DNA of 64,000 bases, taken from a virus. Lineage: Duplodnaviria; Caudoviricetes. Shown in pieces: positions 4,185 through 49,014 of this stretch (the first letter of the stretch is position 1; every line of letters starts with the position of its first letter). The stretch covers positions 1-64,000 of IMG/VR virus record IMGVR_UViG_3300036783_000204; one strand, 5' to 3'. Made by a program: the position numbers and the translations under genes. Under the pieces are notes generated by a model. That model had not been told where the DNA came from and did not search any database. It saw only the letters and a program-made list of their open reading frames with translations.

Positions 4185-4258
4185 CTACCGCTCTGAGTGG
4201 CGGCATGAGATGGATGTGTTTCTTCGCTCTGAGTGGCGTCCTCGGTCTGAGTGCCGAG
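4185..4258 (-). repeat. Three CACTCAGA-loop hairpin repeats in capsid leader
   Basis: cgctctgagtggcg at 4189 and 4225; cggtctgagtgccg at 4243. Confidence 0.85.
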
Positions 4259-7514: not shown

Positions 7515-7742
7515 ATGACCGATATCCCGCGGACGCTGGACGACCTCCGCGCCATTCGCAATGTCGAGGAACGGGCACTTGCCGCCAGCGTGTACATCGC
7601 GGCTGGCGAGGAGAAGATCCGGCAGGCGAGGCTTCAGCGGGACGACGACATTCGCGCCCTGGTGAAGCTGCACGGCATCGCGGAGACCGCACGTCGAGTG
7701 CACCTGTCGGTGTCCTCGGTGAAGATGGCTCGCGGTCGCTAG
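7515..7742 (+). CDS. Small HTH-like protein
   Basis: HGIAETARRVHLSVSSVK; divergent from GIY-YIG gene. Confidence 0.6.
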   Translation: MTDIPRTLDDLRAIRNVEERALAASVYIAAGEEKIRQARLQRDDDIRALVKLHGIAETARRVHLSVSSVKMARGR

Positions 7743-10267
7743 AAGATGCTTTCCAGGACGTCGTAGTCCTGGACGAGGTGTGCCCGCTCTTCGTGGGCCC
7801 ACTTCGCGAGGGTGATCACGACGAGGGGGCAGATGTCGGCGTCGGCGTTTTTCCGGGACCAGGCGATGGTGTCGGTCAGTTCGCGGATCTTCGCCCCGGC
7901 GACGGCCAGGTCCAAGGGCTGTTGACCGATGTGGCGCAGCTCGGCCTGTCGCACCGCGTCAATGATCTGTCCACATGCGCCGCTCATGTCGAGCCCGCCC
8001 ACGATGGCCAGGTCACCCGACCTCGGGTTGTCTTTGTTCTCCGGCACCGTCATGCCCAGCTTGTTCAGCTCGGTTTCCAGGCTCGCCGCGGTACCGCGCC
8101 CGAGGGCGATGGCGACCGGGTTGAGGGTGGTTTTCAGCTCCTCCAGGCGCTCTGGGAGCCACTCGGTTCCGGGCCGGTAGTCGATGAGCTGGACATGCCC
8201 GATCCCGTCGCTACGGAGGCCGTAGAGCCCGATGGCGGCATAGTCCCGCTTCGGGGAGATGTCGCATGCCAGGCTGATCGCCCCGTCCCGTCGGGATTCG
8301 GGGTCCAGCAGCTTCGCCCACTGCGCGACGTCGATGGCCCCGGCCCCGTGCCGCTGGCGAGGCCACACCCCGAGTCGTTCCCGGGCGAACTCTTCCGGCC
8401 CGAGGGAACGGCGCTCGCGGGCGATGGTTTCCTCGGTGATCCGGATGGACAGCGCCGGGTTGGTCGCCGCCCAGATCTCGCGGTCGTCCAGGTCGATCTT
8501 CTGGAGGTGTTCCAGATCCCCGGCGGCGCCCCAGTCCCGCCAACCCAGGGAGGTGTCACCGCCTTGCAGTGCGCGTGCCCGCAGGGCGTAGAGAACTCCT
8601 CCGCTGTCCCCGTCCAAGGGCGGGGAGGAGGTGTAGATGAGCTGAGGGTTCTTCCGCGCGCTCACGGTGGGCATCAGCGCCGCGTGCTGGCTCTGGGTGT
8701 AGGCAAAGGCTTCGTCGATCACGTTGAGATCGCCGCTGAAGCCACGACCCGACCCCTTGGAGCGGGCCAGAAATTTCAGCCGCTGGCCGGTCGCCCTGAT
8801 GGTGACGCCCTCTTCACCGTGGGTTCCGGCGATCTTCACCTCGGAGGCGTCGACGATCCCCGCCTCGATGAGGTTGTGGATCAAGGTACGGACGCGGATG
8901 AACGCTTCCATCGCGGTGTTGTGCGTCGGGATGAAGCCACTTCCCGCAAGGTAGGTCCCGGATTCGTGCGCCACCGTGATGCAGCGGGTAGGCCGGATCG
9001 GCACGCGCACTACAGAGACGATGGCGTTGTAGGCCGAGCGGCTCGTCTTCCGGCGGACGATGGCGTTCGTCTTGCGGGCCAGCCGGAAGGGGCTTCCGTC
9101 GCGGGGGGCGAATTGGGCACGGTGCATCGGTCCGGCGCCCTGACCGTTCAGCTTCGCTTCGTAGGTCCGCAGCGTGGCGCGGTAACCGAGAGAGCGAATG
9201 AGCGCGGTGACGTCCTCCATGAGGTCCCGCTTGACCATCGTGACCACGAGCTGGTGACCGCCGCAGACTCCGCCGTCGGTGTCCATGATTCCCGCGAGCA
9301 GTGCGGCCCGCTGTTCCCGTGAGGCCAGCAGGTACGCCTGCGGAATCCGCTTGTTGCCCAGCAACCCGAGGGCGCGCAGGCGCACGCGCAACCCGTAGAC
9401 GCCGACGTACCAGACGCGACCTTCAGTGCGCTTATCTGGGGCCACCGAACATTTCTCGCCCAGGGCATCGAGTTCATCGAGAACGTGGGTGAGATCCTCG
9501 GCCCCGACGGTCAGCCTGCCGCCACGAGCGTCGCCGTCGCCGAGCCATATCCCCAGCAAGTAGGGGTCGATCGGCAGGTCCGCTTCTGGATATTCGAGGG
9601 GCCGCGGGAGGGCCACGCGCCACCGGTAGAGGTGGCGGTCCCGGTTCTTGCTGGGGTAGGTGTGCACCAGGCCGGAGCGGAGTTCCTCCGTGGTGACCAC
9701 TCGATCCACGGTGGTGCCGGAGCGGAGGACTTCGGTGACCGGCCACAGGTGTTGTCCTCCAGCGACGAGGGACTGTCCGTCGGCGAAGGTCACGCGATAG
9801 CAGTCGCTGTCCCGAAGAACTGGGTGCGCGGCGAGGACCTTCGTCGGCTGCCCGTCGGGAGCGAAGACTTCGTCGCCGGTCTGGAGTTCGCCCATCGTGG
9901 TCCAGCCCCGGACCGTGAGGATCGGCGTAGTGAGGTCCAGGTCCTTGTACTCGTGAGCGCTCCACATGATCAGCTGCTCACGCAGCAGGAACAGCCCGGC
10001 GAGTACGCGCGCCTCAAGGATGCTGCCCTTGCCGTTCTGGCGGCTGACGATCTCGGCGACTTCCATGCAGGCCCATTGATCATCGGCCCGGCGAGCGAGC
10101 ATCAGCGACAGGGAGTCGCACTGCCACGGGTCAAGATCGAGACCGGCCAGTGCCGCCAGTCGGATAGCAACATCCCCGTCGGTACGTACATACGGGGGAG
10201 CCCACTCAACCCGCGGGCGAAGCCCGCCGTGCAGCGATGAGGGCAGCGAGGTCGACAATTCCCCCAC
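7739..10267 (-). CDS. terL: Terminase large subunit (intein-containing)
   Basis: VSRQNGKG Walker A, VIDEAF Walker B, TSSPP, EEFARERLGVW, ADICPLV; start estimated. Confidence 0.95.
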   Translation of the reverse strand: MGELSTSLPSSLHGGLRPRVEWAPPYVRTDGDVAIRLAALAGLDLDPWQCDSLSLMLARRADDQWACMEVAEIVSRQNGKGSILEARVLAGLFLLREQLIMWSAHEYKDLDLTTPILTVRGWTTMGELQTGDEVFAPDGQPTKVLAAHPVLRDSDCYRVTFADGQSLVAGGQHLWPVTEVLRSGTTVDRVVTTEELRSGLVHTYPSKNRDRHLYRWRVALPRPLEYPEADLPIDPYLLGIWLGDGDARGGRLTVGAEDLTHVLDELDALGEKCSVAPDKRTEGRVWYVGVYGLRVRLRALGLLGNKRIPQAYLLASREQRAALLAGIMDTDGGVCGGHQLVVTMVKRDLMEDVTALIRSLGYRATLRTYEAKLNGQGAGPMHRAQFAPRDGSPFRLARKTNAIVRRKTSRSAYNAIVSVVRVPIRPTRCITVAHESGTYLAGSGFIPTHNTAMEAFIRVRTLIHNLIEAGIVDASEVKIAGTHGEEGVTIRATGQRLKFLARSKGSGRGFSGDLNVIDEAFAYTQSQHAALMPTVSARKNPQLIYTSSPPLDGDSGGVLYALRARALQGGDTSLGWRDWGAAGDLEHLQKIDLDDREIWAATNPALSIRITEETIARERRSLGPEEFARERLGVWPRQRHGAGAIDVAQWAKLLDPESRRDGAISLACDISPKRDYAAIGLYGLRSDGIGHVQLIDYRPGTEWLPERLEELKTTLNPVAIALGRGTAASLETELNKLGMTVPENKDNPRSGDLAIVGGLDMSGACGQIIDAVRQAELRHIGQQPLDLAVAGAKIRELTDTIAWSRKNADADICPLVVITLAKWAHEERAHLVQDYDVLESIF
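8918..9943 (-). mobile_element. Class 3 intein with LAGLIDADG endonuclease, 342 aa
   Basis: Splits SAHEYK|TAMEAF; HLWPV, TRCITV, PTHN/T; PYLLGIWLGDG and LLAGIMDTDG. Confidence 0.93.
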
Positions 10268-10775
10268 CGCCGCTCTTCGCTGTTGAGGTCGGCTTTTCCA
10301 CGATGCCGGTCTTGACGAGTTCCGCCACCAGCCCCTTGAGGGCGGTCGCCTGTTCACGGGCCTCGGTGAGCAGGCGATCGACGACCACCAGGACCTCGGT
10401 TCCGTCGTCGTTTCGCGCGCGGAAGCGCAACCAGTCGCCGCCGTGTAGCTGGATGTCCAGCTGGTCGAGGCGGTCGACGATCCGGCAGGCCTCCAGCAGC
10501 AGCGGCACCTGAAGGGGCGAGAGGCGCTTCGAAGCCTCCGTCACCGCCTCGTACAGCTTCCGACCACTTCGGCCGAGCCCCAGCTCCCCTTCGCGGGCTT
10601 TCCGGCCTTCTGGGGCGGCCCCAGGAGGCTCCGGGGGCGTTTTTTCGGCCTCCAGGGCCTTCTCGACAGCCAAGACGGTGCATTTGTCCGGCAGACAGAG
10701 GCTGTGGTCGCCCTTACGGTGCCTGTAGTACTTTCGCTGGCTCGCCGCATGACTCGAACGGGGGTCACTAACCAT
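10206..10775 (-). CDS. terS: Terminase small subunit
   Basis: Overlaps TerL start; LLEACRIVDRLDQLD...EAREQATALKGL. Confidence 0.75.
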   Translation of the reverse strand: MVSDPRSSHAASQRKYYRHRKGDHSLCLPDKCTVLAVEKALEAEKTPPEPPGAAPEGRKAREGELGLGRSGRKLYEAVTEASKRLSPLQVPLLLEACRIVDRLDQLDIQLHGGDWLRFRARNDDGTEVLVVVDRLLTEAREQATALKGLVAELVKTGIVEKPTSTAKSGGGGIVDLAALIAARRASPAG

Positions 10776-10865
10776 GACGACTCACGCACCGTCCGTGATC
10801 TTCTCGGCGGGAAATGCGGGGACAGGCTGCGCGTGGTCGCATGATTTTTTCACTAAAAAGGGGGT

Positions 10866-10921
10866 GGTGATCAACTAACGGGGTCTCGGTGATCAACTAT
10901 CTGACTCTTGGTGATCAACCA
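10866..10921. repeat. Three 12-bp direct repeats with 22-bp period, putative cos/terminase-binding region
   Basis: ggtgatcaac(t/c)a at 10866, 10888, 10910, between HNH and terS. Confidence 0.75.
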
Positions 10922-11092
10922 ACATGGGGTACCCCTGGGGGGTGTGGGGGTGGTACCCCGGGTGGGTATGGGTCCTCCGGTGATCCACTTCTGTGGCGGG
11001 GGTGGTGTCGGTGGGTGGTGTCTGACAGTGGTGAGGGTGAGGGACTCTCTACCCACCACCCATCCCCCCTTGGGTGGGGTGGTGCCCGGGTG

Positions 11093-11452: not shown

Positions 11453-11978
11453 TGCACATTCCCCCGACGCTGTGACCTGCGGGTTTACAAGTGATCAGTA
11501 ACGGGTGCGTAACGGACGCGCATGAGAGGCAACGCTTCCGGGCTGCCAGGCGACTACTCCCATGCAAGGCCGTGCACCGGGGTTCCACCCCCCGGGCACG
11601 GAGCGACTGGCCCCCCGGACACGCGGGTGGCGGGAAGGGTGCGCACCACTGGCACCCGGACTGCTGCCCAGGAGTGAACCGACCGGGTACGGCTACGCCA
11701 TAGCGAGAGTGAGCGGCCCACTTGGGCGCCGCAGTGACCTAGCACTGACATCCGTCACGACACCATGACGAGTCGACGTCTAGCCCGATGGTTGCCGACA
11801 ACCGGTATCCGGGGTCGAGGATCTTCCTCCCCCCACCGTGAGCACACGGGCTCCCGACACGAGTAGTGGAGTGCGCTAGGGACAACGGAATGGAGTGCGT
11901 AGCGCTTCACGGTGAGGCACGGGCCTAGGTCCCTGCCTTGTCCGTGTCCGCTACGGACACAGTAGGAAGGGAAAGCGA

Positions 11979-12158
11979 ATGACCAGCAAGACTGAGCCCT
12001 ACACGCTCACGATCACCGTGACGTTCCCGGACGGCATACCGGCCGGTAAGGACCCGATGGCACTGGCCAACGCGCTCGATCGCCGGATCACCCGGCAGAA
12101 AGTCGCCGGTCAGGCCGTGTCGGTCAGGTTCGACAAAGAGAACGGTGACCTCATCTAG
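11979..12158 (+). CDS. Hypothetical protein
   Basis: RBS ggaaggga, ATG; MTSKTEPYTL... Confidence 0.7.
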   Translation: MTSKTEPYTLTITVTFPDGIPAGKDPMALANALDRRITRQKVAGQAVSVRFDKENGDLI

Positions 12159-12219
12159 GTCCCCCATGGTGACCCGTACCGGTCCGGTACGGGTGTGAGT
12201 TCGAGTCTCACGGTGGACA
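12159..12219 (+). ncRNA. tRNA-like element 1 (acceptor stem plus T arm, no D arm)
   Basis: gtccccc/ggtggac, internal 9-bp hairpin, gtgag-TTCGAGT-ctcac, discriminator A. Confidence 0.6.
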
Positions 12220-12251
12220 CGCACACGGCACACGACGATAGGGAGCTTCAC

Positions 12252-12434
12252 ATGCGAGTTTTGTTGCAGTCCCTCGAATCCGAGCACGTTTTTCTGTCGG
12301 GCGGCTACCTGTCCGCCGGGCTCGTCGGGCACGAGAGCCCTTGGGTGATGGGTGTCGCCTATCTGGCAGTGGGCACCATGCACGCACACCACGTCGTGCG
12401 TTCGAGAAAGCGCAAGACCCCGTCTGAGGACTAG
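12252..12434 (+). CDS. Small hypothetical protein
   Basis: RBS gggag, ATG; stop abuts element 2. Confidence 0.55.
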   Translation: MRVLLQSLESEHVFLSGGYLSAGLVGHESPWVMGVAYLAVGTMHAHHVVRSRKRKTPSED

Positions 12435-12477
12435 TCCTGCATGGTGCGGCGCGCCGGTTCGACTCCGGCGCAGGACA
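12434..12477 (+). ncRNA. tRNA-like element 2 (minihelix)
   Basis: gtcctgc/gcaggac 7 bp plus gccgg-TTCGACT-ccggc, discriminator A. Confidence 0.7.
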
Positions 12478-12506
12478 CGCAAGGCACACGACGGAAGGGC
12501 ACACCC

Positions 12507-12872
12507 ATGGCAGTCACCCCGGAGCAGACGGACACGATTTTCCTTGGGTCCGGCGCGGACTCTTACTCCTGGTATTGGGACGCGACCGTGAGGACCGACG
12601 ACACCGGTTGGACGTTCACGTTCCGCGATGGCGCGGAAGACGAGGAACACCCGGAGCAGGGCAAGGCGTACACGCTCACCCACAAGGACGTCATGCGTGC
12701 GGCACGCAAGATCGTTGCGAAGGGCGGGCAGCAGACGGCCAAGGTCAGCGACGAGTGCGTCCGCGAGTGTCGGACGCTCGTTTTCAAGGATCCGGAAGAC
12801 TGCGACTTTGACGCTGACACCGCTGACCAGGTCCTGCAGGTGGCAGCGTTCGGCGCGGTCGTCTACGGCTAG
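12507..12872 (+). CDS. Phage hypothetical protein
   Basis: RBS ggaaggg; C-terminal DADTADQVLQVAAFGAVVYG. Confidence 0.8.
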   Translation: MAVTPEQTDTIFLGSGADSYSWYWDATVRTDDTGWTFTFRDGAEDEEHPEQGKAYTLTHKDVMRAARKIVAKGGQQTAKVSDECVRECRTLVFKDPEDCDFDADTADQVLQVAAFGAVVYG

Positions 12873-12966
12873 CCCCGCCCGTGACATCGGTGCCGTACGG
12901 GCCTCTCAGAGGTCCGTACGGACACCGTGACCGTGCGGTCAACGTGGAGGAAGGGAAGGGCAGAGG

Positions 12967-13056
12967 ATGACCGTCAGACTCAAGCTCATCAGTTGGGCGC
13001 TCGCCGTGTCCGCGCTAGTCGCCGGTGCGGGCGCGATTCAGTACGCACTGTTCTAG
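12967..13056 (+). CDS. 29-aa single-TM peptide
   Basis: MTVRLKLISWALAVSALVAGAGAIQYALF, strong RBS. Confidence 0.6.
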   Translation: MTVRLKLISWALAVSALVAGAGAIQYALF

Positions 13057-13129
13057 CCGCCATGGTGGCGCGCGGGTGAGACGCGCGCACTCCACGGGAG
13101 CTAGAGCCCCGGGAAGGAAGGGAACGAGC

Positions 13130-13363
13130 ATGAGTGAGACGGCAACGGTGTGGACCAACGGGGATGGGTACTACCGATGGTGGGAGTCCGCAGAGGACGG
13201 ACTCTTTCTGATCTTCGACACGTCCGCGCATATCAACGATGGCGTGCCGAACGTGACCCCGGATGAGGTCCGGGAGCACATTGCCGAGTGCCCGGAGTGC
13301 CAGGCGGCTGGTATCGAGGTCACCGACAACGGCGACGGCACGGCCACCGTCGAGAACCTCTGA
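13130..13363 (+). CDS. Hypothetical protein
   Basis: RBS, ATG; CPEC. Confidence 0.7.
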   Translation: MSETATVWTNGDGYYRWWESAEDGLFLIFDTSAHINDGVPNVTPDEVREHIAECPECQAAGIEVTDNGDGTATVENL

Positions 13364-13442
13364 TCTAACCGCTTTGGTGCGGACGCGTTGGGGGCGCGTG
13401 CGTGCCATGGGGGCTAGACCACCCAGGAAGGGAAAACGCATA

Positions 13443-13850
13443 GTGAAGATCACCAGACAGCCGGACGCGCCGGACGTGTTCGATGAACTCGCGTTCGCGG
13501 CTCTCATTCAGCCGGTGCGGGACTCGATTGTCTTCGGGGACGTCACGCTCACCGAAGACGACGTGACCGCGCAGCGGCTCACCCTGCCCGCCGGAATCGT
13601 CGCCGACGTCGGACACGGCGCCATCGTGGTCGAGATGCAACGGGACCGGATACCGGGTATCGGCCGTGAACTGGTCGCCACAGTTCGGACCGAGCGGGTG
13701 GGGGACGTCCTGCAGGGTGTCCCTTGGCCGCCGGACATCACCCCGGGGGCGGAGGTGACCGTGTCGTGTGGCCGTGACGGCGTCCGCCGGGTGACGGTTA
13801 CCGTGCCGCTACCCGAAGACGAACACGCCGACTGCTGCTATGGCCGCTAG
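13443..13850 (+). CDS. Hypothetical protein
   Basis: RBS ggaaggga, GTG. Confidence 0.65.
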   Translation: MKITRQPDAPDVFDELAFAALIQPVRDSIVFGDVTLTEDDVTAQRLTLPAGIVADVGHGAIVVEMQRDRIPGIGRELVATVRTERVGDVLQGVPWPPDITPGAEVTVSCGRDGVRRVTVTVPLPEDEHADCCYGR

Positions 13851-13927
13851 GGCTAACCGTTTCGGTGGACGCGTGTCGGGGCGCGCGTCCGCCGTGAGGG
13901 CTAGGCCAACTACGGAAGGGATCCACA

Positions 13928-14296
13928 ATGGACTTGAACGCGCTTATGGAGATGGACCACGTGATCCAGGTGCACGCGGACGGCGCGGTCACGGAACCGC
14001 GCGACGTGCGCGGCCCCGATGACGTCTACGTCGACACCGACGGGGACGGGCAGATCTCGGCGGCCGATGACAAAGACCTGATCACCCGCATGCGTGAGCA
14101 GGGGTGGGAGCTGATGAACGGCTACTCCGGGCAGCACGGCTACTCCGGGCCGATCATGCACGCGTCTGAGTACGTCGGGGGCAGGCTGGAAAGGGACATC
14201 CTCGCGGAGCCCGGTTACTACGTGGTCGCGTCCGTGGAGACGCTCGACGACTCAGAGGAACCGGCCGGATGGATCATCGCCCGCAAAGACGCCTAG
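13928..14296 (+). CDS. Acidic hypothetical protein
   Basis: RBS, ATG; YSGQHGYSGPIMHASEYVGG. Confidence 0.75.
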   Translation: MDLNALMEMDHVIQVHADGAVTEPRDVRGPDDVYVDTDGDGQISAADDKDLITRMREQGWELMNGYSGQHGYSGPIMHASEYVGGRLERDILAEPGYYVVASVETLDDSEEPAGWIIARKDA

Positions 14297-14366
14297 CCGT
14301 TTCGGTGACGCGCATGAGGGTGCGCGTTCGCCGTGGCTGCTAGGCCAACCACAGGAAGGGAAGACC

Positions 14367-14738
14367 ATGCCGACATACCGACTCACGATTGACGCTCACC
14401 GCAACCCGCCCGCCGGTTACGACGGTCCGGCGGAGGAATCGCGCACGTTCGTCAAGTACGTCAAGGCCGTCACTCCGGCCGTTGCTCGCCAGTCCATCGG
14501 GAACCGCCCGGTGACCGACGTGACGGACGGGGCATGGTTCGACGAATGGCGGATCACAGCGGCGCGCAAGGCGCCCGTGTTCGAAGTGGTCACGACGGAC
14601 ACTGCCGCGTGGCACTCGAACGGCATCACGGGAATCAACGTGCACTACTCGAAGCGTGTCGCGAACGCGCAGCTACGGACGTTTCGCGAGAAGTGCAAGC
14701 CGGGGCAAGGTGCCTTCCTGCGCACCGTGACCGAGTGA
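14367..14738 (+). CDS. Hypothetical protein
   Basis: RBS, ATG. Confidence 0.7.
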   Translation: MPTYRLTIDAHRNPPAGYDGPAEESRTFVKYVKAVTPAVARQSIGNRPVTDVTDGAWFDEWRITAARKAPVFEVVTTDTAAWHSNGITGINVHYSKRVANAQLRTFREKCKPGQGAFLRTVTE

Positions 14739-14818
14739 GCGCGTGCCATCGGTGATCGCCGTCCACTGCGGACGGCGGTTGCCGTGACCACACGGTCAAC
14801 CGAGAGGGAGTGACGACA

Positions 14819-15418
14819 ATGCGCACCACGACCACCGAACGGGCGCGGGAAATTGCAGGCGGCTACGCGACGTCCGCCGACCGTGATCGAGAGATGACCC
14901 GGTTTTCCTCGACGGGGCAAGCGGACGGATATGAGCTGCTCCAGTGCATCGAACGGGACGCGCGAGAGCTGCTCGAACACCCCGAGTACCCGCCGCAGGC
15001 ACGCGAGGAAATCCGTGCCGAGCTGGACTACCTCCGCACGTGGGTGCGTGAGGTTCACGGCCGGTATGCCGTGTGTGTCGACCGCGAAGTGTGGACGGAA
15101 GATGAGGAGTCGGACGGCGAGAGCACCGACACGGCCGATTACCTCATGTTCGAGACGCTGTCTGAGGTCGCTGACTACATGTTCAAGAATGGTGTAGACC
15201 ACGTCCGCGACGACGGACAGTGGACCGCGCGAACCATGGTGCAGTCCGCCCGTACGGAGTTCCACGGCACGACCATGCGCGACTATGTGGCCGTTCCGGT
15301 GCCGATGGCGGAACGCATCACCGTGACCCCGGAGTCCGGATTCAGCGACCGCGCGTGGTGCGCGGTGATCCTGTCCGTGAAGCTGAGGTTCGCCCGGGTG
15401 GGTGGCCGTCTTGGCTAG
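14819..15418 (+). CDS. Hypothetical protein
   Basis: RBS gaggga, ATG. Confidence 0.7.
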   Translation: MRTTTTERAREIAGGYATSADRDREMTRFSSTGQADGYELLQCIERDARELLEHPEYPPQAREEIRAELDYLRTWVREVHGRYAVCVDREVWTEDEESDGESTDTADYLMFETLSEVADYMFKNGVDHVRDDGQWTARTMVQSARTEFHGTTMRDYVAVPVPMAERITVTPESGFSDRAWCAVILSVKLRFARVGGRLG

Positions 15419-15671
15419 CCCGGAAACGGTTCACGTGTGGGCCGATGGGTTCGACCGATGGCACGCGCGGGTGAGCTTCCCAACGGGCTACACGGCGTCC
15501 CGTGTCGCCCGTGAGCGGCCCCGAATCCGGCGCAAGGCGCGACGTGCCATCCGGCGGCAACTGTCCCTTAGGGGCCAACTGGGCCCCGGGTGGGCATGCC
15601 GGGTAGTCCTGCGCGATGACGCGCGGGACCACTCCGGCGACACGCACTCGATCACGTACCGCGAACGGTGA
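15411..15671 (+). CDS. Basic hypothetical protein
   Basis: Overlaps upstream stop; VHVWADGFDRWHARV. Confidence 0.6.
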   Translation: MASPETVHVWADGFDRWHARVSFPTGYTASRVARERPRIRRKARRAIRRQLSLRGQLGPGWACRVVLRDDARDHSGDTHSITYRER

Positions 15672-15683
15672 GGTGAACACACA

Positions 15684-15863
15684 ATGCCCGTGTACAACGT
15701 CGTCGTGAAAGTTGTCGTGTTAGTTGACGCTAACAACGGCGAGGAAGCACAGCGAAAGGCCGATGAACACTGGGAGTCCCAAGGGGAATGCGTGTACCGG
15801 GACAAAGATGTCGCGCCGTTCGAGTCGGAACCCCTAGCCCCGGGCACCCCTGTTATCCGCTGA
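15684..15863 (+). CDS. Small hypothetical protein
   Basis: RBS gaggtg, ATG; MPVYNVVVKV. Confidence 0.6.
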   Translation: MPVYNVVVKVVVLVDANNGEEAQRKADEHWESQGECVYRDKDVAPFESEPLAPGTPVIR

Positions 15864-15946
15864 GCGTGCGCCATCCGTGGGTGAGCGTCCCTAGTGGACG
15901 CTCACGCGCGGTCAACGCATGGTCAAACCAAAGGAAGGAAACGAGA

Positions 15947-16492
15947 ATGACCACGACCACAGTTGCCCCGGCATTGGACACGGACGCGCTTGCCGCGTTG
16001 CGTGAGGCGGATAGCCTCACGTTCCACGTACACCAGGGGCGGGGGTTCATCCGCGCGTACCTCGACGCGCACCGGGACAACATTTACACGGCGCGAGAGC
16101 AAAGACTCTTCGCGACGCCCCAGGAGCACGGCGGGAGACGCCGGGAAATCCCGTGCGAGTACGGGGCAATGGGCTACAGGGTCCACGGTGAGACCGCGTG
16201 GACAGCCGCCGGTGCCCCTCACATGGCCGCGTACGCGTCGGTGACCTCATCCCGGTACGGCGACGGCACGTGGTCCACTACGGCGGCCGCTCTGCGCGTC
16301 GGCGACCGTCTCTATCTCTCGTGGGTGGCGGACAACAACACGGTAACCCTCGACACGTACGGGCTCCACGCGGACTACCTCACGCTCCGTGCGACACGCG
16401 GCGAGGCAGGGAAAGAGCGCGCACTCGCGTTCCATGTGGCGCACTCGGTTGCGCCGGACAACACGGCTCGCATGATCCGGCGGAACGGATGA
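15947..16492 (+). CDS. Hypothetical protein
   Basis: RBS aaggaagg, ATG. Confidence 0.7.
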   Translation: MTTTTVAPALDTDALAALREADSLTFHVHQGRGFIRAYLDAHRDNIYTAREQRLFATPQEHGGRRREIPCEYGAMGYRVHGETAWTAAGAPHMAAYASVTSSRYGDGTWSTTAAALRVGDRLYLSWVADNNTVTLDTYGLHADYLTLRATRGEAGKERALAFHVAHSVAPDNTARMIRRNG

Positions 16493-16740
16493 TCCCCCGG
16501 GAGGAGACGGCACCGGAAACGCGGCCTGTCGGCACGCTGGATCTGGAACCCGGCATGCGGCTACTCGTCGCGCGAGGCATTGTGCGCACGGTGGGAGCCG
16601 TAACGGATAGCGGGTACGTCGCGACGTCCGGACCGATCTTCAATGTGTGGTACGCGGGCCCGGTGCCGGATGACGGGTGGCCGGGCCCAGGCAACTCCGG
16701 CACACGTACATCCAAGTGGCGCGTAATCGTCGGCGACTGA
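16489..16740 (+). CDS. Hypothetical protein
   Basis: ATGA coupling. Confidence 0.6.
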   Translation: MIPREETAPETRPVGTLDLEPGMRLLVARGIVRTVGAVTDSGYVATSGPIFNVWYAGPVPDDGWPGPGNSGTRTSKWRVIVGD

Positions 16741-16822
16741 ACCGTGTGGTGTCGGCCGTGAACGTCCCGTGTGGACGTTCACCGGCCGTCTCCATACGAC
16801 TCAGACCTAGGAAGGTACGCGC

Positions 16823-17302
16823 ATGACAACTCAAAGACAGACCCGCAGACGTCGACCGATGTCGACGCACGTCGTGGTGTGGGGATCGTTCTTGGTGGCA
16901 CTGGCGGGATCGTTCGGGTTTCAGGTGGCCAGCACGGTCATTCGGAACGGGGTGGGCCCGTCCATCGCGGTGGCCTTCTTGTGGCCCCTGCTCAATCTCG
17001 GGGCCATCGAAATGATGATCGGGTCACACTGGCGACCGGGTCACGGGTGGACGGCCGCGCGGTACGGGCTCTCCGGGGCGGTGGCCGTGATCTCGTTCGT
17101 GATCTCGTTCGGGCACATTCAATCGGTCATGCTCGCGATGGGTGAGACGCCCGCTGCCGCGTTCGCGGGGCCGTTCGCCATCGATGTACTGATGTTGCTC
17201 GCGGGTGCGTCCCTGGTGGCGCTGAGGGCCCCTAAACCACGTGCACGGCCCCGGAAGGCCACCCCCCGGCGTAAACCCGCGCTTCGCGTGGCCACGGCGT
17301 AG
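16823..17302 (+). CDS. Four-TM membrane protein (DUF2637-like)
   Basis: Four hydrophobic segments; ISFGHI...PFAIDVLML. Confidence 0.7.
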   Translation: MTTQRQTRRRRPMSTHVVVWGSFLVALAGSFGFQVASTVIRNGVGPSIAVAFLWPLLNLGAIEMMIGSHWRPGHGWTAARYGLSGAVAVISFVISFGHIQSVMLAMGETPAAAFAGPFAIDVLMLLAGASLVALRAPKPRARPRKATPRRKPALRVATA

Positions 17303-17382
17303 CCCCGTGTGCAGTCGGCCGCGCCCGTCCAACTGGGACGGGCGTTGGCCGTCACCGCACGGTGAAACGGAAGGGAGACAAG

Positions 17383-17667
17383 GTGAGCGAGCGCTACGAA
17401 CGCCCGACGTTCGACAAGGACAAGCTTTTCACGTTCGACGGGGTCAAGATCACGGAAGGGCTCCGGGTGTGGGATCACAATCTGGACTCCGGGGCCGTGA
17501 CGTTCGCGGGGGTCCGCACGGACTCGGGCTACTGGGACGGCTGGTTTCACGTCGCTCTGGACAAGGGCGGCCGGTCCTACATGAACGCGGAGCGCGTCCG
17601 TACGCGTCACCACACGGACGGACGCAAGCCGCCAACAACGGAACACGCAACGGAAGGGAAGAAATGA
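17383..17667 (+). CDS. Hypothetical protein
   Basis: RBS ggaaggga, GTG. Confidence 0.65.
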   Translation: MSERYERPTFDKDKLFTFDGVKITEGLRVWDHNLDSGAVTFAGVRTDSGYWDGWFHVALDKGGRSYMNAERVRTRHHTDGRKPPTTEHATEGKK

Positions 17668-17993
17668 ACGAGACGACCACAAAGACGCTCACGGACATGC
17701 GCGAGGGGCTGTTCGCACTCGCGCGCGCCCAACGGGATGTCATCCCGCCGCCATCGGTCACGGCCGCGATGGTCACCGAATGGGCCGTGGCCCTTCGCAA
17801 GATCCTTAACGAGTGGGCCGAGGATGCGGAGCGCGCGACGGGTTCCAGGCCGGACGGATGGGACGTCACGGTCACCCACGAGGACGGTCACGTCGCAAAG
17901 GACGCGTGCTCGGATTTCGACACCATGAACGAGACTCTTTCGCGGCACGCCGGGAGCGAACACGGCGACATCACGCGAATCGTGATGGTTTGA
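17664..17993 (+). CDS. Hypothetical protein
   Basis: RBS, ATGA overlap. Confidence 0.65.
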   Translation: MNETTTKTLTDMREGLFALARAQRDVIPPPSVTAAMVTEWAVALRKILNEWAEDAERATGSRPDGWDVTVTHEDGHVAKDACSDFDTMNETLSRHAGSEHGDITRIVMV

Positions 17994-18132
17994 CCCGTGT
18001 GACCAACGGTAGGGACCGTCCCAACTGGACGGTTCCGGCCGTGGCCACACGGTCAAAGCTGAAAGGGGCTCCAGGGCCCCCAACTGAGCCGTACGGGACC
18101 GAACTCGAACGGCTAAATCGAAAGGTGAGCAC

Positions 18133-18369
18133 ATGACCACACCGGCAGAGGAACTGTCGTGTCTGCACGGACCGGAAGGGTGCACCGGCACCGTGAAGCC
18201 CCGGGAGCCACTGAGTGGAACCGGGAAGTCGTTCGACTGGTGCGACGGACACTGGGCGAAGCGGCTCGACATACAGGAACGGGTACGCCGTGACTACCCG
18301 GACTCGCCGGTCGCTCCGGCGTGGTTCGACCCGGCGAATGCCGGGGAACGGTGGGACGACGACTACTGA
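18133..18369 (+). CDS. Small Cys/His phage protein
   Basis: CLHGPEGC...WCDGHW...APAWFDPANAGERWDDDY. Confidence 0.75.
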   Translation: MTTPAEELSCLHGPEGCTGTVKPREPLSGTGKSFDWCDGHWAKRLDIQERVRRDYPDSPVAPAWFDPANAGERWDDDY

Positions 18370-18487
18370 TCCCCCAACTACCCCGCCCGCGTGATCAACG
18401 GTCGCGTACGGCCCCCCCTGGCGGGCCGTACGGGTGCCGTGACCGCACGGACAACCGTACGGCGACACGAAAGAAGGAAGAGACACC

Positions 18488-18679
18488 GTGAGCGAATTCC
18501 GAGTGCTTATCAAGACCGATAACGCGGCCTTCGAAGACGGCCGGGACGCCGAGCTGGCGCGCATCCTCCGGGAGATCGCCGACGGTCTGGACGAGGGGGT
18601 TTCGGCTGGCAACGTCCGCGACATCAACGGCAACACCGTGGGCGACTTCGGTGCGCGCATCGACGGCACCATGCCCTGA
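18488..18679 (+). CDS. Phage hypothetical protein
   Basis: TDNAAFE...ELARILREIAD...RDINGNTVG. Confidence 0.8.
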   Translation: MSEFRVLIKTDNAAFEDGRDAELARILREIADGLDEGVSAGNVRDINGNTVGDFGARIDGTMP

Positions 18680-18781
18680 TCTGTCCGTGTGACCGCTTTC
18701 GCGCCCGTCACCTGTGGACGGGTGCGGGCGTGGCTACACGGCCAACGAAAAGCAGCAGCCGAAGCAACGGGAGAGCAGACA

Positions 18782-19027
18782 ATGAGCGACACGCAGGAAA
18801 ACACCCGCTGGGTCGAGGTGTGGATCATCAATGACGGCGACTACCACGACCGCGCGCTTGAACTCGCGACGGACGGAGACACGGACGGACTTGGGGAATA
18901 CCTGACGGAGTCCCTGAAAGGCGCCCCTGAGGGGTCCGGCGCGTGGCACACGGCCCAGGAGATGTCTGACGCTGACTACGGCCGTGTGGACTGGAAAGAG
19001 ATCGCCGAGACCCTGACAGCCAAGTAA
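18782..19027 (+). CDS. Hypothetical protein
   Basis: WIINDGDYH...VDWKEIAE. Confidence 0.7.
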   Translation: MSDTQENTRWVEVWIINDGDYHDRALELATDGDTDGLGEYLTESLKGAPEGSGAWHTAQEMSDADYGRVDWKEIAETLTAK

Positions 19028-19036
19028 GGGGATCAC

Positions 19037-19573
19037 ATGTCCGACCACGCCATGCCGGACGTCGTGTGCGTCACGTGCCAGCAGCCGCTGAACCGGTTCC
19101 AACAGGACGGCGTCACAACCTGGCTTCACCCGAAGGCGAAGGAAGCCGACCACGAGGCAATCCCGATCCCCCGCGCGGAAGCTACACACGTGGTTTACGT
19201 GTGCGACTTCTGCGGAGGCGGAGACGTGCACTGGTCTTACCCTGTCGGCGGGGAGATTAAGACGATTACGGCAATGCCGAAGTTCAGCGAGGAGAAGGAA
19301 CGCAAGCAAGTTGCGAAGGACTGGGACGTGGAGCGGCACAAAGCGGCGCCTGCTCAGGAGCTTGGAGAGAACCGCTTCAGTGACCGCTGGGCTGCATGCG
19401 ACCCGTGCTCCGATCTCATCGAGCTGCGGGACATGGAACGGTTGATCACTCGCCTGCGGCGACTGGAACCGGCGAAGTTCGCCGTTCCGCCGGTCACGCG
19501 GACGCTGCTCCGCCAACACTTCGGCGAGTTCTTCCGGCTGGTACGCGACAGGGAGCCTATAGAGCCCGCGTGA
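19037..19573 (+). CDS. Cys-rich (CxxC x3) hypothetical protein
   Basis: CVTC, CDFC, WAACDPC. Confidence 0.7.
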   Translation: MSDHAMPDVVCVTCQQPLNRFQQDGVTTWLHPKAKEADHEAIPIPRAEATHVVYVCDFCGGGDVHWSYPVGGEIKTITAMPKFSEEKERKQVAKDWDVERHKAAPAQELGENRFSDRWAACDPCSDLIELRDMERLITRLRRLEPAKFAVPPVTRTLLRQHFGEFFRLVRDREPIEPA

Positions 19574-19657
19574 CCGCGTTCGCGGCCGACCCTTCGGGGT
19601 CGGCCGGGTTCGGGGCTACACGGCCAACTGAGAGCCCGGAAACTAGGAAGGGAAGAC

Positions 19658-19906
19658 ATGTACACCACCGCAGAGGGAACCATCGCCCGTCTCGACCGGC
19701 GGAAGGCCAGCACCAACGGGAACCCGCGCTACCGGGTGACCCTCGTGGGACAGGCGACCATCGACACGGAGACCGACGCGTCGGTCAACTACGCGATCGA
19801 CAACCCCGAGTACCGCGACGTGCCGGTCATTCTCACGCTGGAGCGGAGCAAGATCGTAGGCATTCGGACGGCCGACGGGGTGCACACCGACGGCCCGCAG
19901 GGCTAA
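19658..19906 (+). CDS. Hypothetical protein
   Basis: RBS ggaaggga; STNGNPRYRV. Confidence 0.75.
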   Translation: MYTTAEGTIARLDRRKASTNGNPRYRVTLVGQATIDTETDASVNYAIDNPEYRDVPVILTLERSKIVGIRTADGVHTDGPQG

Positions 19907-19995
19907 CCCGGTCCGTGCCGCGCTTGGTCCCGGCCGTCCCAACTGGACGGCCGGGTGCCATGGCAACACGGCCGAACAGAAGGAAGGAGGTACGG

Positions 19996-20778
19996 ATGTC
20001 GAGCACACTCGACCCGAAGCACGCGGAAGTGCTGCGGTGGCTGATCGAGGGGGAACCGGACCGCTACGCGGTGGCATCGCAGCTCCCCGACCAGGAGGGG
20101 CTGTACCACTACTCGACCCTCAAGGCGATGGAACGACGCGGCCTCGTCACCCTGCGCGGGATGAGCAACCACATGATCGGCACACCCCGAGGCACCCGGC
20201 AAGTCGCCACCATCACCGAGAAGGGAAGAGCGGTCGCGGCGAAGGAGGGAAGTGGCGACGATGCCAGCCCGGTCAAGGCGAGCGAGCCGCCTGCACCCGT
20301 TGTAACCAACGCAAAGAAGCAGGCGAGGAAGGCGGAGAAGTACCCCCGCGTCGTGTGCCCGTTGTGCGGGAACGACAGATTACTCAGGCATGACGGCACG
20401 TTCCCGAACCATCTGCGGGTCCGTACGGAGCCCGGGACGTGCAAGGGAACGGGCAAGACCCCGGCGGAGGCACTGGAGATGCGCGAGATGTCCAGCAGCG
20501 AGCTTGACTCGAATCGGCCACCGCTGACGGGCTTCGCGCCTGAAATCACGTGGACCAGAGGTAACCACGGGAGCCTTCGCGGCAGCGTGAACCGAATCCT
20601 GTTGTTCACCATCGGGTGGGGCATCACGCGGGACGAGGACGGCCCGTACAGCCTCACGACGACGCTGCCCGGCTTCAAGCCTCCGGTCTGGCGGTGCGCC
20701 AGCGAGGGGACGGCACGCGATAAGGCTGACCAGCTGCTCCGGGGGTTCATCGATCGCCTGACCAGCAAGGAAGCCTAG
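19996..20778 (+). CDS. Winged-helix-like plus Zn-finger-like hypothetical protein
   Basis: RBS aggagg; TLKAMERRGLV; CPLCG...H...C. Confidence 0.6.
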   Translation: MSSTLDPKHAEVLRWLIEGEPDRYAVASQLPDQEGLYHYSTLKAMERRGLVTLRGMSNHMIGTPRGTRQVATITEKGRAVAAKEGSGDDASPVKASEPPAPVVTNAKKQARKAEKYPRVVCPLCGNDRLLRHDGTFPNHLRVRTEPGTCKGTGKTPAEALEMREMSSSELDSNRPPLTGFAPEITWTRGNHGSLRGSVNRILLFTIGWGITRDEDGPYSLTTTLPGFKPPVWRCASEGTARDKADQLLRGFIDRLTSKEA

Positions 20779-20935
20779 GTGTCCTATAGCCCCCAACTGA
20801 GGCCGGTTTAGCCGGAACTGGTCGGGACAAGCAATAGGTGCCGGGCGAGCACGATCATCCGTGCCGACACAGTGGCGGGCGTCCAACTGACGTCCGTTGC
20901 TGCGGCGACACGGCCGACAGAGGAAGGGGAAGTAG

Positions 20936-21322
20936 ATGGCGCAAGACACCCGTAGCACCCACTACACGTGCGAGTGCGGATCGGGGAACTTCACGTGCTC
21001 GGACTGCGGTCGTTCGGACTTCGTGTTCCCGTTGCCCGAGGAACCGGCGACGCCGTTCAATGGACACCCGTTGATCGCGTCAGCTCCCACGAAGAACGGC
21101 GGTTTCGTCATCGTGGTCAAGTACGGCGACGAAAGCGTCGTCGCCGAGGCGCGGACGCTGACGGACCGGGAGTGGAGTAACGGGCACTACTGCCCCGAAC
21201 TCGACACCGCCATGCGGGACTTCGCCTCGCGCATTGCCAGCGGCTACAGGGAGCTGCCGCTGGCGAACCCGGAGGTTCAGGCCGTCACCGACACATGGAA
21301 CGCGAACAGGAAGACCACATGA
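20936..21322 (+). CDS. Hypothetical protein with N-terminal Zn ribbon
   Basis: CECG...CSDC; WSNGHY. Confidence 0.7.
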   Translation: MAQDTRSTHYTCECGSGNFTCSDCGRSDFVFPLPEEPATPFNGHPLIASAPTKNGGFVIVVKYGDESVVAEARTLTDREWSNGHYCPELDTAMRDFASRIASGYRELPLANPEVQAVTDTWNANRKTT

Positions 21323-21960
21323 GCGAGGACACCTACCCGCAGGCCCGGCAGCCCCGGCGCGACACCGGATGCCCGGCGTGCGGCGCAGACATCAAGCCGA
21401 CCACGAGCAAGGAGGTTTGGCCTCAGCACCCGATCGGCGGGGTCAAGGGAGCGGAAAGGTGCGGCCTGTCCGGGCACGGAATCAGCTACCAGACCGACGT
21501 GTACTTTCGGACGTTCTTCGACCGCGAGAACCCTGAGGGTTTCCCTGTGACCGGCCACCAGATCACGACTCAGCTGGAGGACATGGGTGACGCGATCGGC
21601 GTTATCAACCGGCTGGCAATTGCGTCGGGGTACGACGCGGGGCCGGGGCACCCGGTCGCCGAGATCACCTCGCGCATCGTCGAGGACGACTACCCGCGCC
21701 TTCGTGACGAGCTGGACCGGCACGCACGCAAACGCGGCTGGGTGAAGCAGCCGCCCCGGCCGTCGCGTGAGGCGTTCGTCGCGAAGGCGGCGCAGAACAT
21801 CGCCCGCGTCCACCACGACGGCATCAGCACCGGCCCGGACGTCACGGATGACGAGTGGCGGGACATCTGGGAGGTCGTGTTCACCGACTCAGTGCGCGCC
21901 CGGTACCACGACATGGCATCCGTTGCACTGGTCGGACTTCCGGCCCGCTGGTGGGCCTGA
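21319..21960 (+). CDS. Hypothetical protein
   Basis: ATGA coupling; CPACG. Confidence 0.65.
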   Translation: MSEDTYPQARQPRRDTGCPACGADIKPTTSKEVWPQHPIGGVKGAERCGLSGHGISYQTDVYFRTFFDRENPEGFPVTGHQITTQLEDMGDAIGVINRLAIASGYDAGPGHPVAEITSRIVEDDYPRLRDELDRHARKRGWVKQPPRPSREAFVAKAAQNIARVHHDGISTGPDVTDDEWRDIWEVVFTDSVRARYHDMASVALVGLPARWWA

Positions 21961-22060
21961 TCCGTGCCGCACATGGCCGCGTGCGTCCGATGTGGACGCC
22001 CGTAGGCCACGGCTGTTCGGCCGAAACCCTCTATATGTACCCAACTGGAAGGAAAATCCG

Positions 22061-30910: not shown

Positions 30911-31005
30911 GATCCGCGTCCCGCGCCTCTACCGCTTGGGCTACCCGGGCATGAAGAGCCCAGGGCAGGATTCGAACCTGCACGTAACGGGATATTCGGG
31001 TGATC
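30911..31005 (-). ncRNA. Permuted tRNA-mimic (YrlA/Y-RNA-like) RNA A
   Basis: T arm gcagg-TTCGAAT-cctgc, loop-closed acceptor cctgggc/gcccggg, D arm gcc-caagcggtaga-ggc, closing stem tcccg/cggga. Confidence 0.85.
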
Positions 31006-47100: not shown

Positions 47101-47467
47101 CGCGTGGGCTGCCTTCTCGTGTGCGCACGCGGCGTCCCTTGGGGGGACGCTAGCCGGAAGATCGGCGGGGCTCAACTCGTGCGACTAAGTGCTCGCACGG
47201 TGGGTGTCCGTGCCTGGCCGGAGATCGTCCGTAAGCCTCTGACCTGCACGTACACCCGAGCCGCCGCCGTCTGCCCGACCGTTGCTCCTAAAGTGGCCTT
47301 TATGAGCAACCAGCGTGCTGAGCTGGGGAATCTCGGAGAAGTAGGCTCCCACCTGCGACAACGTGTTGTCAACGTGTCTCGCTGGGTCGCGCTGAGATGA
47401 CACCGAATCGCGCTTTCAGGGGGGTTACTCGCACGCACTCGCACGCCGGAGAGGTCACCTGTCGGCT

Positions 47468-48937: not shown

Positions 48938-49014
48938 AGCGGGGTGGAGCAGCTCGGTAGCTCACTGGGCTCATAACCCAAAGGTCGCAGGTTCGAATCC
49001 TGTCCCCGCAACAA
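48938..49014 (+). tRNA. tRNA-Met(CAT), initiator type
   Basis: Cloverleaf; CTCATAA loop with 3 G-C pairs; 1:72 mismatch; TTCGAAT; no encoded CCA. Confidence 0.93.

Follow-up and report, generated by a model that had tools for sequence, protein, structure and literature searches.

A family of ordered sense-strand hairpins in the accessory-gene operon of a temperate actinophage: probable mRNA punctuation and gene-swap sites

Genome setting of the array

The virus record IMGVR_UViG_3300036783_000204 of the IMG/VR database (Duplodnaviria; Caudoviricetes) comprises 78,521 bp with a GC content of 65%. The window analysed here, to which coordinates refer unless another genome is named, is its first 64 kb (64,000 nucleotides). 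The subject of this study is a set of long hairpins located between 11.9 and 22.0 kb of this window. The region from 1 to 10.7 kb carries packaging and head genes on the minus strand, including those for portal and prohead protease. A non-coding stretch of 1.2 kb separates these genes from about 32 small plus-strand genes, which extend from position 11979 to 26.5 kb. The array, as we call the hairpin-bearing part of this gene series, consists of about 25 accessory genes joined by the hairpins. The plus-strand genes are followed by a minus-strand block that encodes an ERF recombinase and a tyrosine integrase, the latter adjoining a gene for tRNA-Met. The phage is temperate and has an actinomycete (Amycolatopsis-type) host. 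Proteins encoded in the array are nearly all ORFans, with almost no matches in Pfam and PHROGs searches. The hairpins are a previously uncatalogued sense-strand RNA hairpin family, which punctuates this long accessory-gene operon.

The hairpin family

Sixteen strong hairpins and one weak hairpin, all on the plus strand, belong to a single family (Table 1). An earlier reading of this DNA from its letters alone (the sequence-only reading) had noticed about 16 related long hairpins in the region; all 16 positions fell into one family by folding, alignment and covariance-model search, and the weak 17th member was added. Each of the 16 sites folds as a single long hairpin of −31 to −47 kcal/mol, with z scores of −2.2 to −7.1 against dinucleotide shuffles. 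The elements align at 55% mean column identity in a MAFFT alignment. The covariance model, designated R1, was built from the 16 window hairpins. It recovered all of them on the plus strand with scores of 41–69 bits, and scored the reverse strand of the same loci about 20–45 bits lower. No further site better than E 0.3 was found with this model in the whole 78.5-kb genome.

Each hairpin has about 26 base pairs in a three-tier stem, together with a 5-nt loop and a short tail, ...ACGG-YCAAC. Many carry CGTCC-N5-GGACG as an apical palindrome. Two subfamilies, with structure more conserved than sequence, had been proposed from the sequence alone. Both share one skeleton, namely CCG..CGGT..inner stem..GCCG..ACGG/CTAG, so that the subfamilies are better described as variants of one family, and the sequence is conserved too. 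Subfamily 1 has no GTCC/GGAC stem. With Rfam at gathering score, the only match in the 64-kb window was the tRNA-Met at 48938, and the hairpins matched no family; relaxing the threshold to E values up to 10 for positions 10.7–13.0 kb gave nothing relevant. K-turns and other named RNA motifs were considered for the internal loops and gave no fit by eye.

A separate observation concerns the motif CCCAACTG, which occurs five times on the plus strand within 4 kb (18020–22047), twice in hairpin loops and three times in leaders. Six occurrences were counted on both strands of the whole window versus 1.9 expected. The related sequence CTCCAACTGAAAGG precedes the gene at 25308.

Table 1. Hairpins, tRNA-like elements and recombination genes in the window (bits for hairpins are R1 scores; z, z score of the fold; MFE, minimum free energy)
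Position	Strand	Feature	Evidence or remark
11781–11886	+	Putative branched form related to the CTAGC/GCTAG subfamily, ahead of the first gene, inside the 163-nt block	Ends resemble subfamily 1 (CTAGCCCGATGG ... GCGCTAGGGACAAC); membership putative
11893–11963	+	Weak 17th member, leader of the first gene (11979)	23.5 bits, E 0.013; MFE −39.6 kcal/mol, z −4.5
12159–12219	+	tRNA-like element 1: acceptor-like stem (6/7 pairs), 10-bp hairpin, canonical T arm (TTCGAGT loop)	Begins right after TAG stop
12434–12478	+	tRNA-like minihelix 2: perfect 7-bp acceptor stem, T arm (TTCGACT loop), 12 nt replacing D and anticodon arms	First base is the G of the TAG stop
12875–12945	+	Family hairpin	51.6 bits; z −5.2
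13053–13112	+	Family hairpin, CTAGC/GCTAG subfamily, TAG stop paired in base	40.8 bits; z −2.4
13365–13425	+	Family hairpin, CTA../..TAG subfamily	42.5 bits; z −2.2
13853–13912	+	Family hairpin, subfamily 1	48.4 bits; z −4.2
14293–14351	+	Family hairpin, subfamily 1, TAG stop in base	55.1 bits; z −4.2
14735–14802	+	Family hairpin, TGA stop pairs with TCA of GGTCAA	63.3 bits; z −3.8
15860–15929	+	Family hairpin	60.7 bits; z −7.1; 81% identical to L203:5701
16738–16806	+	Family hairpin	62.7 bits; z −6.5
17301–17369	+	Family hairpin	64.7 bits; z −5.0
17991–18059	+	Family hairpin, then a second small hairpin and 73-nt leader	68 bits; z −6.4
18383–18457	+	Family hairpin	63.5 bits; z −3.2
18681–18748	+	Family hairpin	63 bits; z −4.9; 83–89% identical to L093:5535, flanks unrelated
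19562–19630	+	Family hairpin, 5' arm holds the upstream gene's last three codons and stop	54.6 bits; 90–91% identical to L091:3339 over hairpin, leader and ribosome-binding site; flanks unrelated
19909–19978	+	Family hairpin	69.2 bits; z −5.5; 84–89% identical to L091:2439
20855–20920	+	Family hairpin, 77 nt past stop codon	52.9 bits; z −3.1
21958–22027	+	Last family hairpin; plus-strand genes continue to 26.5 kb without more	61 bits
40864–41271	−	ERF-family single-strand annealing protein	PF04404, 72.6 bits (cut-off 25); outside the array, context
45769–47175	−	Tyrosine integrase, the sole one in the genome	PF00589; ordinary phage integrase, not IntI

Position of the hairpins relative to genes

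The sequence-only reading had each hairpin start at or within the upstream stop codon. This holds for 13 of the 16 window elements, in which the stop codon lies inside the hairpin or no more than 5 nt from its base. It fails for the element at 18383, which begins about 14 nt past the stop, for that at 19562, where the stop sits 9 nt into the 5' arm, and for that at 20855, which follows the stop at a distance of 77 nt. Among the 61 copies collected from eight genomes (see below), the stop of an open reading frame (ORF) of at least 40 codons starts −6 to +11 nt from the first base of the model in 59. The mode is 0 to +1, so the stop codon itself forms part of the basal stem, where TGA pairs with TCA and CTAG with CTAG. 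The following start codon lies a median of 17 nt beyond the model end and is preceded by a GGAAGG-type ribosome-binding site (RBS), with a leader of about 8–10 nt between hairpin and RBS. The corresponding distance from hairpin to start codon in the window is 13–33 nt, with the exception of the element at 17991 (73 nt). Given this rigid stop and start geometry, the connector is a fixed unit of stop codon, hairpin, leader and RBS. The idea of a 'universal adaptor' with stops in all three frames was rejected, as only 4 of the 61 hairpins have them.

Junctions without a hairpin are those of overlapping or nearly abutting genes (15418/15402, 15671/15684, 16492/16489, 17667/17664, 19027/19037 and 21322/21319). 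The claim that intergenic gaps hold family hairpins was upheld for most other non-overlapping gaps and not for the first two gaps of the array. These two contain tRNA-like minihelices, which take hairpin slots and precede a leader of the same type. Both share ACACGCA..GGCACACGACGG as downstream leader, and the T loop of each is closed by a G-C pair. Neither minihelix was called by ARAGORN or by the Rfam tRNA model; they have an acceptor stem and a T arm only and form no full cloverleaf. Sister arrays were found to contain no such minihelices. Genome-wide, a perfect TTCGANT T arm is present in the two minihelices, in the real tRNA-Met and at one other site only. On the minus strand at about 30965–30981, we observed the perfect T arm GCAGG TTCGAAT CCTGC, which is near-identical to that of the phage tRNA-Met at 48987. 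An RNase P cut at the acceptor base of minihelix 2 would fall within the TAG stop codon.

None of the hairpins is followed by a U-tract, and their tails are purine-rich (..CAAC..GGAAGG). Accordingly, they are not canonical intrinsic terminators; plain terminator action was one of the outcomes that the sequence-only reading had named as refuting it. Six terminator-like sites were detected in the region; they all lie away from the hairpins and are no more numerous than expected by chance. No sigma-70-like promoters were found between 10.7 and 22.3 kb using an E. coli-type consensus, which is weak evidence in actinomycetes.

Covariation and folding strand

In the 52 best copies, 83.4% of the cells in paired columns are paired versus 69.5% in shuffles, and none of 500 shuffles reached the observed value. 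Changes on both sides of a pair were recorded for 23 of the 26 pairs, and slid controls showed 27–39% pairing. The 16 window elements alone, evaluated with the hand-written three-tier structure, gave 79.5% paired cells versus 68% in shuffles and 27–41% with the partner slid. The middle and inner stems were found independently by RNAalifold on the MAFFT alignment, and 11 of 13 pairs show compensatory changes. Base pairs in the central part of the inner stem are freely CG, GC, AU or UA, even within one genome. Some positions are nearly fixed: the pairs C6-G84, C29-G63 and G31-C61 are near-invariant, and U-G occupies columns 21/71 in 34 of 52 copies.

G-U pairs outnumber A-C juxtapositions by 104 to 29 in the core stems of the 61 copies, and by 64 to 29 after removal of the conserved U-G column, with a symmetric base composition. 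Compared with the antisense fold, the sense fold gains 2.4 kcal/mol in stability (41 of 61 copies, p 7e-4). Since a double-stranded DNA site would not show a G-U bias, it is the sense strand that folds, most simply as mRNA.

Related arrays

Searches with megablast and blastn of the region against 50,697 GenBank phage records returned no match. An outer-stem pattern was matched once in each of 86 IMG/VR stretches; 80 of these were re-scored with R1 and yielded three marginal matches of 25.5 bits, so the pattern matches look like chance. A strict type-specific pattern found nothing in the JGI metagenomes, and no relatives were reached via the 189-aa gene adjoining the array. Of the sequencing runs searched, one contained the stretch, a DNA soil metagenome that may be its source; no RNA run did. 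Two Logan contigs, L091 and L092, were reached through homologues of a 260-aa array protein. The conserved metallophosphatase encoded downstream of the array led to L093, a prophage of Amycolatopsis kentuckyensis (KC20-1; G001:C2, 311–332 kb). R1 detected 7, 4 and at least 7 copies in L091, L092 and L093, respectively, all on the coding strand and at gene ends. In the 10.5-Mb A. kentuckyensis genome, all 7 R1 matches are located inside the prophage.

Among genomes of 147 Amycolatopsis species, five had matches: four with 7, 6, 4 and 7 in one cluster each, and the fifth with a single match at that cut-off. In total, the covariance-model search of relatives that had been suggested from the sequence alone gave 61 sense-strand copies in eight genomes, namely those of the phage, two metagenome contigs and prophages in five of the 147 Amycolatopsis species. 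No R1 match was obtained in 30 other actinobacterial loci with the same phosphatase gene (540 kb). One copy in L093 (4129–4201) lies exactly between convergent stops, with the plus-strand gene ending at 4131 and the minus-strand gene at 4195, and is followed by no RBS.

Phage phiC31 was tried as a possible relative and dropped: R1 finds nothing in it, and its gaps hold other elements (palindromes, a conserved promoter-like box and some U-tract hairpins). The gp13–gp14 gap of phiC31 (L205, 31407–31550) contains a tRNA-like stretch, GCTCAGCGG ... CCGGTTCGAATCCGG, for which the record has no tRNA annotation.

Gene replacement between conserved hairpins

Comparison of the genomes by blastn revealed blocks of 60–95 nt with 80–94% identity that coincide with hairpins, while most flanking genes were unmatched. 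In pairwise alignments, identity rises sharply at the 5' base of the hairpin, near the upstream stop, and drops at the tail or the RBS. No other DNA of the array is as well conserved between genomes as the hairpins, which form islands of 75–91% identity. For 34 inter-genome hairpin pairs that are at least 75% identical, the 90-nt flanks have identities of 0.52 (upstream) and 0.54 (downstream) versus 0.52 ± 0.04 for random 90-mers, and a homologous downstream gene was present in only one of the 34. The conserved phosphatase gene itself shows a DNA identity between these genomes of only 66–70%, so the islands cannot be explained by uniform divergence and the genes must have been replaced. The cassette-like behaviour that had been expected from the layout was thereby borne out, with homology breakpoints between sister genomes at hairpin edges.

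Of the 24 array genes, no more than about 7 are matched by a homologue in any of the other seven genomes, and some of these matches are partial or mosaic. The closest relative of a hairpin is located in another genome in 52 of 61 cases, with a best identity of 0.76 between versus 0.64 within genomes. Reciprocal best matches keep their order, with 79 concordant versus 21 discordant pairs. Hairpin conservation, collinear order and gene replacement together define the array as a scaffold of distinct connectors that is conserved and ordered while its contents can be exchanged. Where homologous gene pairs do exist, their downstream hairpins are 0.61–0.71 identical and their upstream hairpins 0.38–0.81. 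Not every change occurs at hairpins: the homologue of gene 15402–15671 joins its neighbours by start/stop overlap in both genomes, and extra genes occur between the stop of some genes and the hairpin. The hairpins are restricted to the variable part of the operon and stop at 22.0 kb (window) and about 6.2–6.7 kb (L093), where the genes shared among genomes begin.

The 260-aa protein encoded at 19996–20778 is itself a mosaic. Its residues 5–101 match L091 4872–5414 and residues 99–178 match L092 1621–2316, and these two homologues match each other in their C-terminal parts only. This indicates domain-level shuffling within an array gene.

Signatures of known mobile systems were also surveyed. 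Neither strand of any of the 61 elements carries the attC boxes RYYYAAC/GTTRRRY, and no RYYYAAC...GTTRRRY pair with a spacing of 35–130 nt occurs in the whole 78.5-kb genome versus 6.7 expected in shuffles. With the IntI model TIGR02249, the best match reached 34 bits (cut-off 265); the 14 control genomes likewise all matched below the cut-off. The search for a Y1 (RAYT/IS200) transposase, PF01797, gave no match.

Other features of the region

A non-coding block of 163 nt (11729–11889), located just before the array, is 91% identical to positions 716–876 of L093, which occupy the equivalent position; the surrounding DNA does not align. The block is absent from the sister genomes other than this A. 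kentuckyensis prophage. It may comprise the operon promoter and leader, or a structured leader RNA. A shared antiterminator-like RNA was considered and discarded, as only one sister genome has the block and the Rfam match was insignificant. Within the 1.2-kb non-coding stretch, three direct repeats GGTGATCAAC(T/C)A are present at 10860–10925 with a spacing of about 22–25 nt, and weaker GTGATCCAC copies follow downstream. These repeats could be operators or iterons. The 872-aa ORF at 7739–10357 on the minus strand, in the packaging and head block, is taken for the large terminase; it contains a LAGLIDADG homing-endonuclease insert, intein-like in appearance.

Interpretation and alternative explanations

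We propose that the connectors are probably both mRNA punctuation and gene-swap sites. In its full form, in which mRNA connectors would mark processing or stability boundaries and also serve as homology patches for gene exchange, this reading of the sequence comparisons has, in our judgement, about an even chance of being correct. A role at the RNA level is indicated by the sense-only orientation, the wobble bias of the sense strand, pairing that is kept with free choice of base pairs, and the minihelices found in the same slot. The latter support such a role because a T loop is meaningful in RNA only. The sequence-only reading had left a choice between an attC-like array of single-stranded DNA and an RNA processing or stability code. 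The second is the better-supported half, given sense orientation, G-U bias, compensatory changes, the tRNA-like elements, the lack of promoter and U-tract signals, and host RNase III; it would still be a deduction from sequence.

In mechanistic terms, the hairpin would form a very stable cistron boundary in the mRNA, at which host enzymes would cut or to which they would trim back. An RNase III-type cut in the tiered stem is the leading candidate. The phage genome has no RNase III of its own, and the host of a sister prophage carries a gene for one. The two tRNA-like minihelices may be read by RNase P or RNase Z, as candidates. Each gene or gene pair would gain its own protected ends, and neighbouring translation units would be insulated. 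RNA cleavage or end protection, the acting nuclease and the recombination pathway are elements of the scheme that we infer. With identities of 75–91% between connectors and unrelated genes between them, the connectors would also act as homology patches. General recombination could then replace genes slot by slot, and the ERF annealing protein, a candidate for recombining short homologous stretches, could do it. Such shuffling is modular, as in the stem-loop cassettes of T4-type phages discussed below, and is not integron-type site-specific recombination. The covarying inner stem may limit exchange to equivalent slots and guard the array from internal deletions, since crossovers between different hairpin types would join non-complementary arms. 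This restriction would fit the within-genome divergence and the collinear order.

Several points weigh against this interpretation. The hairpins are absent from the conserved plus-strand genes at 22–26.5 kb, so they are no general requirement for operon expression, and this absence fits a link with gene turnover at least as well as an mRNA role. Some stem positions are invariant in sequence and not in pairing alone, which could point to a sequence-specific protein partner. The copy between convergent genes in L093 looks like a 3'-end or terminator element. It and the absence from conserved genes keep attenuator and turnover-only roles alive. In addition, alignments fitted by a model lean towards the model structure, and the kinship of the sequences inflates shuffle statistics.

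Several other functions were weighed. As attenuators or terminators without U-tracts, the hairpins would each stop a fraction of the polymerases, resulting in graded expression, or in silence of the lysogen unless a phage antiterminator acts. U-less terminators were reportedly described by Ingham, Hunter and Smith in 1995 in the early region of actinophage phiC31. Such a function agrees with hairpins that directly follow stop codons and with the copy between convergent genes. Seventeen attenuators in series with no promoter-like signal between them would, however, silence the distal genes. The 25-bp three-tier stems far exceed the length of terminator stems, no hairpin has a U-tract, terminator-like sites elsewhere are at chance level, and R1 finds nothing in phiC31, whose gap elements differ. 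Purified mycobacterial RNA polymerase does not terminate at hairpins lacking a U-tract, even with NusA and NusG (PMC3993855). We therefore consider attenuation unlikely, though worth keeping in mind. A function in translation only, with the RNA left uncut, would have the fold bring the stop codon beside the next RBS, coupling the genes over an 86-nt gap, or insulate the start region. The rigid geometry, with the stop placed at the foot of the helix and a median of 17 nt from helix end to start, speaks for it, as does the presence of hairpins exactly where genes do not overlap. It leaves unexplained the minihelices in the same slot, the copy with no gene downstream, and why these junctions do not rely on gene overlap as others in the operon do; we regard it as distinctly unlikely. 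Binding sites of a sequence-specific protein, either on DNA (repressor 'stoperators' or palindromes like the conserved inverted repeats, CIR) or on RNA (a translational operator or antiterminator loading site), would account for the near-invariant stem positions and the frequent apical CGTCC-N5-GGACG. Precedent exists in the intergenic repressor sites of cluster A mycobacteriophages and of phiC31, in whose gaps palindromes are visible. A single sequence-reading protein would not tolerate CG, GC, AU and UA at the same stem positions within one genome. The excess of G-U over A-C argues against a double-stranded DNA site, subfamily 1 has no GTCC/GGAC stem, and no candidate binding protein common to all arrays was found. 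This explanation appears quite improbable.

The remaining alternatives assume mobility of DNA. Folded-DNA recombination sites, attC-like or served by another hairpin-specific recombinase, would excise and insert cassettes. The cassette-like layout, the two conserved tiers with a variable tip and the gene turnover at hairpins resemble such sites, and attC clusters without an integrase, known in phages, provide a precedent (Qi et al. 2023, PMC9892861). The R''/R' boxes are missing from all 61 elements and no pair occurs anywhere in the genome; neither IntI nor a Y1/HUH transposase is encoded. The sequence GCTAGRC had been read as one base off an R' box, but the ends of subfamily 1, GCCTAGC/GCTAGGC, lack the AAC/GTT triplets. 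Also, the best-folding strand is the coding strand, genes are not inherited with their downstream hairpin (both flanks are at the random level), and hairpin types keep their order between genomes, whereas integron cassettes reshuffle. The attC-like shuffling array of the sequence-only reading is accordingly abandoned, and folded-DNA sites in general seem highly improbable. A dedicated non-integron system is conceivable, in which a phage or host enzyme would recognise the folded coding strand by its conserved basal and middle tiers and swap the genes bounded by stop, hairpin and RBS. The inner stem would then be a slot address that permits exchange only between equivalent positions and no within-genome deletion. 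We rate this variant of structure-specific exchange as very unlikely. Selfish miniature repeats, similar to miniature inverted-repeat transposable elements (MITE) or repetitive extragenic palindromes (REP), could likewise have spread into the gaps as repeated imperfect palindromes and left islands of similarity in unrelated flanks. They would not be expected to be less alike within genomes (best 0.64) than between them (best 0.76), to be collinear, or to keep one orientation and a constant spacing to stop and start codons. No transposase was found (PF01797 search), no copies lie outside the prophage in the 10.5-Mb A. kentuckyensis genome, and we give this origin hardly any credence.

Whichever function applies, accessory regions of phages hold most of biology's unknown genes, and their fast turnover is only partly understood. 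The array is an unusually clean case, in which ordered structured connectors are conserved while the genes in the slots are replaced. It is represented by eight independent genomes, one of them a prophage of the sequenced A. kentuckyensis KC20-1. The covariance model is ready for finding such arrays. The stop–hairpin–RBS connector is a natural part and a possible insulator for operon building in actinomycetes.

Comparison with known systems

Like attC sites, including those in clusters lacking an integron integrase (CALIN), the hairpins are imperfect, lie at or near the stop of small promoter-less ORFs in one orientation, and combine conserved basal boxes with a variable tip. They differ in having neither the defining boxes nor an integrase, in that the opposite strand folds, and in that the genes are not linked to hairpins.

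Start-associated sequences (SAS) and extended SAS (ESAS) of Cluster K mycobacteriophages travel with particular gene families, and, given departures in the two repeats, the case for an mRNA hairpin is slight according to Pope et al. (2011, PMC3203893). ESAS and the hairpins are both imperfect inverted repeats of actinobacteriophages, located directly upstream of a conserved RBS motif at many gene starts in one orientation. The hairpins, in contrast, show abundant compensatory changes and are not linked to flanking genes.

Polycistronic transcripts are punctuated by tRNAs in animal mitochondria and by t-elements in plant mitochondria. The two minihelices, composed of acceptor stem and T arm and starting on the stop codon, are of the structure type recognised by RNase P and RNase Z. 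They occupy only 2 of about 19 slots and this phage only, whereas members of the main family are simple long hairpins that lack a T loop.

Phages T7 and T3 possess RNase III hairpins in early and late polycistronic mRNAs, which are about 60 nt long, have upper and lower stems with internal irregularities and are located shortly before the next RBS. Related intergenic hairpins of this two-tier type between cistrons of one long transcript are common to both systems. The features of a T7-type site, an intergenic helix of at least about two turns in a polycistronic mRNA, were found here, with about 26 pairs on the sense strand only, and cleavage is predicted. A helix of about 25 bp is adequate for RNase III, as in T7, and the enzyme is encoded by the host of the sister prophage. 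T7 has about 10 sites among essential conserved genes; in the present phage at least 17 are confined to a variable accessory region. No sequence relationship exists between the two.

The closest precedent for the exchange half of our interpretation is provided by the promoter early stem-loops (PeSLs) of T4-type phages. Recombination between these short conserved intergenic motifs causes most indels in hyperplastic regions (Arbiol et al. 2010, PMC2839356; Comeau et al. 2014, PMC4122927). Both systems consist of short conserved intergenic motifs in a hypervariable, ORFan-rich region, with breakpoints of indels or replacements at the motif and motif–motif recombination as the proposed mechanism. 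The array displays the hallmark of PeSLs, a conserved intergenic motif in a hypervariable region with replacement breakpoints at the motif, and it ends where conserved genes begin. PeSLs combine a strong sigma-70-like promoter with a terminator stem-loop, whereas the hairpins have no promoter-like part (E. coli-type scan) and no U-tract. The hairpin is instead a 70-nt three-tier element fused to stop codon and RBS in a phage of a high-GC actinomycete host, and each slot has its own variant, the order of which is kept between genomes. PeSL-like modular shuffling would thus extend from T4-type coliphages to temperate actinophages with a promoter-less element, joining two ideas that are usually kept apart, mRNA punctuation and recombination linkers.

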